Source of the DNA: Escherichia coli | Lineage (GTDB): Bacteria > Pseudomonadota > Gammaproteobacteria > Enterobacterales > Enterobacteriaceae | NCBI RefSeq assembly: GCF_016903815.1 | Contig: NZ_CP069973.1 | Reading direction: 5' to 3' (one strand) | DNA: 64,000 nucleotides | Shown here: positions 53,589 through 55,310 of the stretch, one piece after another | Numbering within the stretch: the stretch's first letter is position 1 | Layout of the letters: each line of letters opens with the position of its first letter | Made by a program: the position numbers and the translations under genes | Notes under the pieces: model-generated | What the model saw: the letters and a program-made list of their open reading frames with translations, nothing else | The model's database searches: none | Told to the model about the DNA's origin: nothing

Positions 53589-53974
53589 TACTCAATCCTC
53601 TGCCTTGCAAACTCTCCAAAATTTTCTGCTCTTGCCATCATTGATGCTGAGATAGCTTCGTCCAGGTCATCGAAGCATCCAACGTGAACCTGTTTTTTAT
53701 TTTTCTTGAAAGAAACAGTCCACTTGCAGAGATTTTTGTGCCAACAGACACCAGGATATCCTGACTTATTATTTCTTTGAATATTCCTGTTCATCCCATT
53801 CTGGGATCTATTTGCCAATCTTAAATTTGAAAATCTGTTATCCGTTCTGTCTCCGTTAATATGATCTATTAAGCAATTTGCAGGTTTTCCTGTCATATAA
53901 AACCAAGCAAGCCTATGCGCTAAGTATCTCTTACCACAGACCATTATCCTTAAATAACCAGTGCACATGGTTCC
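53588..53974 (-). pseudogene. HNH endonuclease gene, C-terminal part (gene split by IS2)
   Basis: Encodes ...CTGYLRIMVCGKRYLAHRLAWFYMTGKPANCLIDHINGDRTDNRFSNLRLANRSQN... (HNH motif); the reading frame continues across the IS2 insertion into 55311..55418. Confidence 0.8.
53970..53974. repeat. IS2 target-site duplication (GTTCC), proximal copy
   Basis: 5-bp GTTCC directly abutting the IS2 end at 53975, identical to 55306-55310. Confidence 0.85.
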
Positions 53975-53985
53975 TGGATTTGCCC

Positions 53986-54891
53986 CTATATTTCCAGACA
54001 TCTGTTATCACTTAACCCATTACAAGCCCGCTGCCGCAGATATTCCCGTGGCGAGCGATAACCCAGCGCACTATGCGGATGCCATTCGTTATAATGCTCG
54101 AACGCCTCTGCAAGGTTCTTTGCTGCCGTTAACCCGTCTGGTTTGGGCATGATACTGATGTAGTCACGCTTTATCGTTTTCACGAAGCTCTCTGCTATTC
54201 CGTTACTCTCCGGACTCCGCACCGCCGTGTTCTTCGGTTCAAGTCCCAACATCCGGGCGAACTGGCGTGTTTCATTAGCCCGGTAGCATGAACCATTATC
54301 CGTCAGCCACTCCACTGGAGACGACGGAAGATCGTTGCCGAAGCGGCGTTCCACCGCTCCCAGCATGACGTCCTGTACTGTTTCACTGTTGAAGCCGCCG
54401 GTAGTGACCGCCCAGTGCAGTGCCTCACGATCACAGCAGTCCAGCGCGAACGTGACACGCAGTCTCTCTCCGTTATCACAGCAGAACTCGAACCCGTCAG
54501 AGCACCATCGCTGATTGCTTTCTTTCACGGCCACTCTGCCTGTATGTGCCCGTTTCGATGGCGGTACAGCAGGTTTTCGCTCAAGCAACAGCGCATTCTG
54601 GCGCATGATCCGGTAAACACGTTTGGCATTGATCGCAGGCATACCATCAAGTTCTGCCTGTCTGCGAAGCAGCGCCCATACCCGACGATAACCATACGTG
54701 GGCAGCTCTCCGATAACATGGTGTATACGGAGAAGCACATCCGTATCATCAGTGTGACGACTGCGGCGGCCATCCATCCAGTCATCGGTTCGTCTGAGAA
54801 TGACGTGCAACTGCGCACGCGACACCCGGAGACAACGGCTGACTAAGCTTACTCCCCATCCCCGGGCAATAAGGGCGCGTGCGCTATCCAC
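53986..54891 (-). CDS. insD: IS2 transposase OrfB (InsD, DDE integrase domain)
   Basis: 301-aa ORF starting [23 protein letters not shown] (GTG start) with DDE transposase domain. Confidence 0.9.
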
Positions 54892-55259
54892 TTTTTTGCC
54901 CGTCCATATTCAACGGCTTCTTTGAGGAGTTCATTTTCCATCGTTTTCTTGCCGAGCAGGCGCTGGAGTTCTTTAATCTGCTTCATGGCAGCAGCAAGTT
55001 CAGAGGCAGGAACAACCTGTTCTCCGGCGGCGACAGCAGTAAGACTTCCTTCCTGGTATTGCTTACGCCAGAGAAATAACTGGCTGGCTGCTACACCATG
55101 TTGCCGGGCAACGAGGGAGACCGTCATCCCCGGTTCAAAGCTCTGCTGAACAATTGCGATCTTTTCCTGTGTGGTACGCCGTCTGCGTTTCTCCGGCCCT
55201 AAGACATCAATCATCTGTTCTCCAATGACTAGTCTAAAAACTAGTATTAAGACTATCAC
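54849..55259 (-). CDS. insC: IS2 transposase OrfA (InsC, HTH)
   Basis: ORF ...[41 protein letters not shown]... with GTG start; overlaps insD in the -1 frame with an A6G slippery site at 54892-54898. Confidence 0.9.
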
Positions 55260-55305
55260 TTATTTAAGTGATATTGGTTGTCTGGAGATTCAGGGGGCCA
55301 GTCTA

Positions 55306-55310
55306 GTTCC
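55306..55310. repeat. IS2 target-site duplication (GTTCC), distal copy
   Basis: 5-bp GTTCC directly abutting the IS2 end at 55305. Confidence 0.85.

Follow-up and report, generated by a model that had tools for sequence, protein, structure and literature searches.

Organisation of the locus

The window analysed here, a 64,000-nucleotide stretch of Escherichia coli DNA, carries a P22-like prophage that adjoins a tRNA-Arg(CCT) gene (42760-42834), with intS beside the tRNA. Its late genes, annotated by PGAP as coat, gp4, gp10, HNH, needle, gp14-like, three ejection proteins and tailspike, all lie on the minus strand. This gene order, along with a lambdoid early region and a Q antiterminator, is that of P22-like (Lederbergvirus-type) phages, and Lederbergvirus is also the classification given to ON470594.1, a near-identical record. 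Within the late operon, between gp10 and the tail needle gene as the first-pass annotation had placed it, sits a complete copy of the insertion sequence IS2 (Table 1). Both neighbouring genes were identified by PHROG assignment. A search of NCBIfam with the phage structural proteins and the HNH protein gave no matches; PHROGs and Pfam were used for these proteins in its place. Between intS and the tailspike gene, two cargo-like genes lie on opposite strands, one for a DUF1796 putative cysteine peptidase (44270-44926) and the other for a GDSL-type esterase/lipase (45122-45658). The esterase might act on O-antigen, an activity that would fit a P22-like phage.

Table 1. Features of the IS2 insertion and of the surrounding late genes (positions in the window).
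Feature	Position	Strand	Basis
Complete IS2 (IS3 family)	53975..55305	-	100% identity to annotated copies; 2/1331 differences vs IS2A
IRL, 42 bp (TAGACTGGCCCCC...)	55264..55305	-	Gapped alignment with IRR; length per PMC3299598
IRR, 41 bp (...GGGGCAAATCCA)	53975..54015	-	Gapped alignment; sole tip match in the window
insC (OrfA, 121 aa; IS2 repressor/TnpA)	54849..55214	-	NF006928, 276 bits
insD (OrfB, 301 aa; transposase catalytic part)	53986..54891	-	NF006918, 728 bits
AAAAAAG programmed -1 frameshift site, IS position 409-415	54891..54897	-	Open 409-aa InsCD fusion; PGAP
Target-site duplication copy 1, GTTCC, at IRR tip	53970..53974	.	Read directly; alignment with strain 15.TR.026_OXA (L002) ends at 53974
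Target-site duplication copy 2, GTTCC, at IRL tip	55306..55310	.	Read directly; alignment with L002 resumes at 55306
N-terminal HNH remnant	55290..55418	-	MISHEELK...; 38 native codons + 4 IS2 codons, stop inside IRL
C-terminal HNH remnant, chimeric 137-aa ORF	53588..54001	-	First 9 codons (MSGNIGANP) from IRR; WP_204638456.1
gp10 (head closure / packaged-DNA stabilisation), upstream of insertion	55421..56839	-	PHROG 578 'head closure Hc3', E=3.5e-228; PGAP gp10
Tail needle (gp26-like, 233 aa), first gene downstream	52887..53588	-	PHROG 1219 'tail needle protein', E=1.6e-113
gp14-like head morphogenesis protein	52432-52887	-	PHROGs 651, 598, 917 for the gp14-like/ejection set
Two DNA ejection proteins	51737-52429 and 50339-51727	-	PHROGs 651, 598, 917 for the gp14-like/ejection set

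The element is a complete IS2

Direct reading of the sequence gave exactly 1331 bp between the two GTTCC copies. On the minus strand, the element starts with TAGACTGGCCCCCTGAATCTCC and ends with GGAAATATAGGGGCAAATCCA; its left end begins TAGACTGGCCCCC and its right end finishes GGGGCAAATCCA, and both tips are identical to those of IS2A of E. coli K-12 (NC_000913.3, 381260-382590). Comparison with IS2A revealed 1329 matching bases and only two differences, at IS positions 316 (C>T) and 606 (A>C). The element is also 100% identical to many copies annotated as 'IS3-like element IS2 family transposase', and IS2-matching sequence is present in 4901 of 5426 complete E. coli genomes. When IRL and IRR were aligned with gaps, 31 of the 42 aligned columns were identical; the two ends are thus imperfect repeats, ending 5'-TA/TG...CA-3' as in IS2, and their lengths match the published values of 42/41 bp (PMC3299598). 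The IRR tip had a single match within the window, with 0 expected by chance. On re-inspection for truncated termini or missing direct repeats, the termini were found to be whole and both GTTCC copies present, in agreement with the full-length IS2 with correct termini described in the first-pass annotation.

The coding part is equally intact. The insC and insD genes are present as overlapping ORFs with an A6G motif, the predicted two-ORF arrangement of IS2, and upon translation a -1 shift at AAAAAAG, beginning at IS position 409, yields a fusion open over 409 aa. InsC matched the NCBIfam model NF006928 'IS2 repressor TnpA' above its cutoff of 229 bits, and InsD matched both NF006918 'IS2 transposase TnpB' (cutoff 597) and the IS3-family transposase model (205 bits against a cutoff of 160). 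PGAP joins the two genes into one CDS with the note 'programmed frameshift', and the insC/insD pair with its frameshift site, as originally called, is borne out by these data. The copy looks functional. It shares with IS2A of K-12 MG1655 its length, tips, insC/insD layout, A6G site and a 5-bp duplication (ATTAC in the case of the K-12 copy), and differs from it only by the two point changes and the insertion site. By every feature examined, the element is an ordinary member of IS2.

The interrupted gene is an optional HNH endonuclease cassette

Deletion in silico of IS2 together with one GTTCC restored a 495-nt ORF encoding 164 aa, which corresponds to the intact gene WP_021529423.1 of IS2-free relatives. 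The restored protein carries HNH_3 (E=7.6e-16) and AP2 (E=2e-4) domains in Pfam and belongs to PHROG 99, HNH endonuclease (E=4e-70), confirming that the insertion lies inside an HNH endonuclease ORF. An HNH motif combined with a DNA-binding module (AP2) is the predicted make-up of a free-standing HNH homing endonuclease. The gene, the segments of which now occupy 53588-53974 and 55311-55419, is split after codon 38. Its N-terminal remnant starts 2 nt past the gp10 stop, while HNH_3 and AP2, which span residues 53-153 of the full-length protein, are both kept in the C-terminal remnant. In RefSeq, the C-terminal remnant WP_204638456.1 is listed as an ordinary 'HNH endonuclease' CDS and not as a pseudogene; its start codon and first nine codons fall within IRR and share DNA with the end of insD, which is read in a different frame.

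The HNH gene is not a fixed part of the late operon. A cassette of about 484 bp is present in only about 15 of 511 site-matching E. coli genomes, inserted exactly where gp10 ends and the needle gene begins, and the ATG of the needle gene overlaps the HNH stop as TAATG. In genomes devoid of the cassette, such as FORC_082, gp10 directly adjoins the needle gene. Occurrence in some genomes but not in others, at one site flanked by conserved genes, is typical of homing endonucleases. Free-standing HNH-AP2 homing endonucleases of phages (PHROG 99; Salmonella phage Segz_1, SETP-type) have the same domains and are likewise seated between two conserved genes, with presence or absence among otherwise similar phages; the closest homologues in phage records are only 46-48% identical, one prophage-derived record excepted. 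The HNH gene is therefore an optional mobile cassette, a property that the first-pass annotation had missed. Since most relatives are without the gene, its loss should be harmless to the phage, and we infer that this dispensable endonuclease is the only gene destroyed by the insertion. The locus is thus a case of nested mobile DNA: the prophage sits at a tRNA gene and houses a homing-endonuclease cassette, which in turn contains an IS.

Origin and age of the insertion

Identical GTTCC pentamers were confirmed at both tips of IS2, at the very positions first reported. A 5-bp flanking match at fixed positions is expected by chance about once in 1024. The restored empty site, used as a 621-bp query, was 100% identical in five IS2-free E. 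coli genomes and 98-99% identical in eight further genomes. In the annotation of all 13, an unbroken 'HNH endonuclease' separates gp10 from the gene after it, and the IS2-free genomes carry a single GTTCC at the empty site. The comparison with IS2-free related prophages, which had been proposed as a check on the insertion, hence yielded an exact empty site, and in strain 15.TR.026_OXA (L002) it yielded the duplication itself: the alignment of the window with this genome breaks at 53974/55306, and the subject bases 20406-20410 are used twice, as a 5-bp overlap. An alignment break with a 5-bp subject overlap, together with an exact empty site, points to simple transposition with a 5-bp duplication. 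In keeping with the single clean event originally proposed, we regard the insertion as almost certainly a single, recent, simple IS2 transposition into the P22-like prophage at tRNA-Arg (argW). IS2 would have moved by copy-out/paste-in via a minicircle into the HNH_3+AP2 gene at codon 38, with duplication of the GTTCC target on entry and in the direction of the phage late operon.

We also considered that IS2 was brought in by recombination (from another IS2-bearing prophage, or by a composite or one-ended event), or that it is an assembly artefact. IS2 is multicopy, as seen from a 2.5-kb insertion-spanning query that matched four places in the chromosome record of strain 2779, and multicopy repeats are typical sites of misassembly and recombination. 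However, the 5-bp duplication is perfect, removal of IS2 restores the site exactly, and both flanks are collinear with, and essentially identical to, those of an IS2-free prophage at the same chromosomal site. Neither differing flanking 5-mers nor flanks mapping to different prophages or loci were seen. Moreover, the junctions are identical in two complete genomes that were assembled separately, so that an assembly artefact is ruled out. Both origins were rejected on the strength of the two assemblies, the restored site and the 5-bp overlap, and we consider them scarcely credible as compared to simple transposition.

Simple transposition at this site also appears to have taken place lately. 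Compared with the IS2-free prophage integrated at this argW/intS site, the downstream arm (42835-53974) matched at all 11,140 positions, and the upstream arm showed 3 differences in 8,695 bp. The proteins encoded downstream carry identical RefSeq accessions in the two strains compared, one with IS2 and the other without. Zero differences over 11,140 bp downstream as compared to an IS2-free copy argues for a very recent insertion; by these comparisons the insertion is very recent, with no decay since. IS2 was found at this site in just two of 5,426 complete genomes, those of strains 2779 and 5283. From 33400 to 64000, the window is 100% identical to E. coli strain 2779 (NZ_CP103521.1), a human blood isolate from Houston, in the record of which PGAP already annotates this IS2. 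The event is of a textbook type and, as RefSeq lists this very insertion, already known. Its significance is small, as IS2 is among the best-studied insertion sequences and IS insertions in prophages are common, but the insertion is usable as a clonal marker common to two clinical E. coli isolates (2779 and 5283).

Possible effect of IS2 on expression of the downstream late genes

The first-pass annotation had suggested that the insertion may be polar on the tail needle and ejection genes. IS2 is a classic polar element, and its Rho-dependent terminators have been used as a standard polarity reporter (PMC3737525). If polarity were strong here, late transcription or translation would end in IS2, the needle, gp14-like, ejection and tailspike proteins would be under-expressed, and the prophage would be a defective one that lyses cells and releases non-infectious heads. 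Several features of the locus speak for such an outcome. All six virion-finishing genes lie downstream of IS2 on the same strand. About 870 nt past the insC stop would be left untranslated by most ribosomes, and this poorly translated stretch could leave the RNA open to Rho. Where translation of the needle gene is coupled to that of gp10 or HNH, the coupling may be weakened as well. No replacement promoter was detected either in a promoter scan of the minus strand or at the IRR junction. At the latter, an outward hybrid promoter was sought and rejected, as the candidate -10 sequences 16-18 bp past TGGAAA (GGAACC, GAACCA and AACCAT) are all poor.

Other features argue against strong polarity. 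IS2 is inserted in sense orientation relative to the late operon, and the scan for intrinsic terminators found none on the minus strand between 53400 and 55600, IS2 included; intrinsic terminators within IS2 on the transcribed strand were thus rejected. Two terminator-like sites were found in the same scan on the plus strand only, a number within chance expectation. The sense strand of IS2 has more G than C in 12 of 14 windows of 100 nt (for instance, 37 G versus 24 C at IS positions 401-500). This is the opposite of the C-rich/G-poor preference of Rho, and the transcribed strand is hence unlike a rut site. The base composition suggests that the antisense IS2 transcript is the C-rich, Rho-friendly one and that Rho-dependent polarity of IS2 depends on orientation. 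IS2 reportedly created a promoter for ampC, a gene that lay downstream of IRR (orientation II), as described by Jaurin and Normark in 1983. Going by that case, the present insertion would be in the less polar orientation II and not in the polar orientation I.

The late operon is also expected to be antiterminated. The prophage encodes a Q-family antiterminator, the gene for which was annotated by PGAP outside the window. Studies by Adhya et al. in 1974 and by Forbes and Herskowitz in 1982 are said to have shown that lambda N and Q suppress IS polarity. Polymerase loaded with Q resists termination and carries out uninterrupted late transcription (PMC12360218). In galEP3 (gal3), where IS2 at the start of the gal operon likewise stands between the promoter and the downstream genes, Rho-dependent terminators inside IS2 made this the classic case of IS polarity (PMC3737525). 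In contrast to the late operon studied here, gal transcription is not antiterminated.

The downstream genes show no decay in sequence. The start region of the needle gene is untouched, lying 386 bp from the insertion point, and the needle gene has the same protein accession as in the IS2-free relative. The late genes from 50339 to 52887 are 100% identical in DNA to this relative. The absence of decay (0/11,140 differences) does not favour strong polarity, but shows recency only. Taken as a whole, the orientation, base composition and antitermination suggest that the polarity of this IS2 is weak, and the suggested polar effect was probably overstated. Late transcripts from the Q-antiterminated promoter would mostly read through IS2 into the needle and ejection genes. 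It is somewhat probable that the prophage still makes infectious particles, at most at a moderate cost; a prophage crippled by strong polarity is possible but rather unlikely. The insertion lends itself to a natural experiment on whether antitermination by Q can overcome IS2 polarity in a P22-like late operon.

Comparison with Sf6 and possible spread of IS2 by phage

An additional 1.3 kb could matter to a phage that packages by headful. The prophage unit between the att core copies measures 39,208 bp including IS2, or about 37.9 kb once IS2 is subtracted. Genomes of P22-like phages are of similar size, about 39 kb in Sf6 and about 41.7 kb in P22. The possibility that IS2 pushes the genome past the headful capsid limit was therefore rejected, since 39,208 bp is within the P22-like range.

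Shigella phage Sf6 provides a precedent. This P22-like phage is viable with an intact IS911, also of the IS3 family, and loss of IS911 speeds its growth (PMC5630979). As in the prophage described here, an intact IS3-family element resides in a P22-like headful-packaging genome and interrupts a non-essential gene (PMC5630979). The two cases differ in position and direction: IS911 of Sf6 lies in the early nin region and is transcribed against the late genes, whereas IS2 here lies within the late structural operon and points along it. A fitness cost of the insertion is plausible, because IS911 loss sped up the Sf6 life cycle.

The sense orientation of IS2 in a Q-antiterminated operon, in a genome that fits a P22-type head, raises the possibility of induction-driven IS2 expression and packaging. 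On prophage induction, late transcripts reading through IS2 could give rise to a burst of transposase expression, and IS2 could at the same time be packaged into infectious virions, though we hold this to be quite unlikely. If true, the phage would carry IS2 from strain to strain, and its induction would trigger IS2 transposition.

Neighbouring elements and related records

In strain 2779, a second integrative element of about 10.3 kb lies in tandem past the prophage attR, outside the window (2040-12362 of locus record L004; NZ_CP103521.1, ~1498039-1508361). It encodes a tyrosine recombinase, a rolling-circle replication-associated protein and a MerR-type regulator, is bounded by 16-bp and 23-bp copies of the tRNA-Arg 3' end, and is absent from the ON470594.1 version of the region.

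The record ON470594.1 ('Escherichia phage vB_EcoP-683R2', 'complete genome') begins with cscR, cscA, cscK and cscB and ends in the integrase gene. It was considered as proof of virions from an IS2-free relative and was rejected as such, as it includes these chromosomal sucrose genes and has host or int DNA at its two ends; the record appears, from its gene content, to be a prophage prediction with host flank. In it, the HNH gene is labelled 'endolysin' and the gene at the small terminase position 'HNH homing endonuclease'.

On the chromosomal side, the alignment of the window with strain 15.TR.026_OXA has a gap at about 38082-38232. A hypothetical gene between fadL and mlaA (39277-40524) is 1248 nt long in strain 2779 as compared to 1272 nt in 15.TR.026_OXA.
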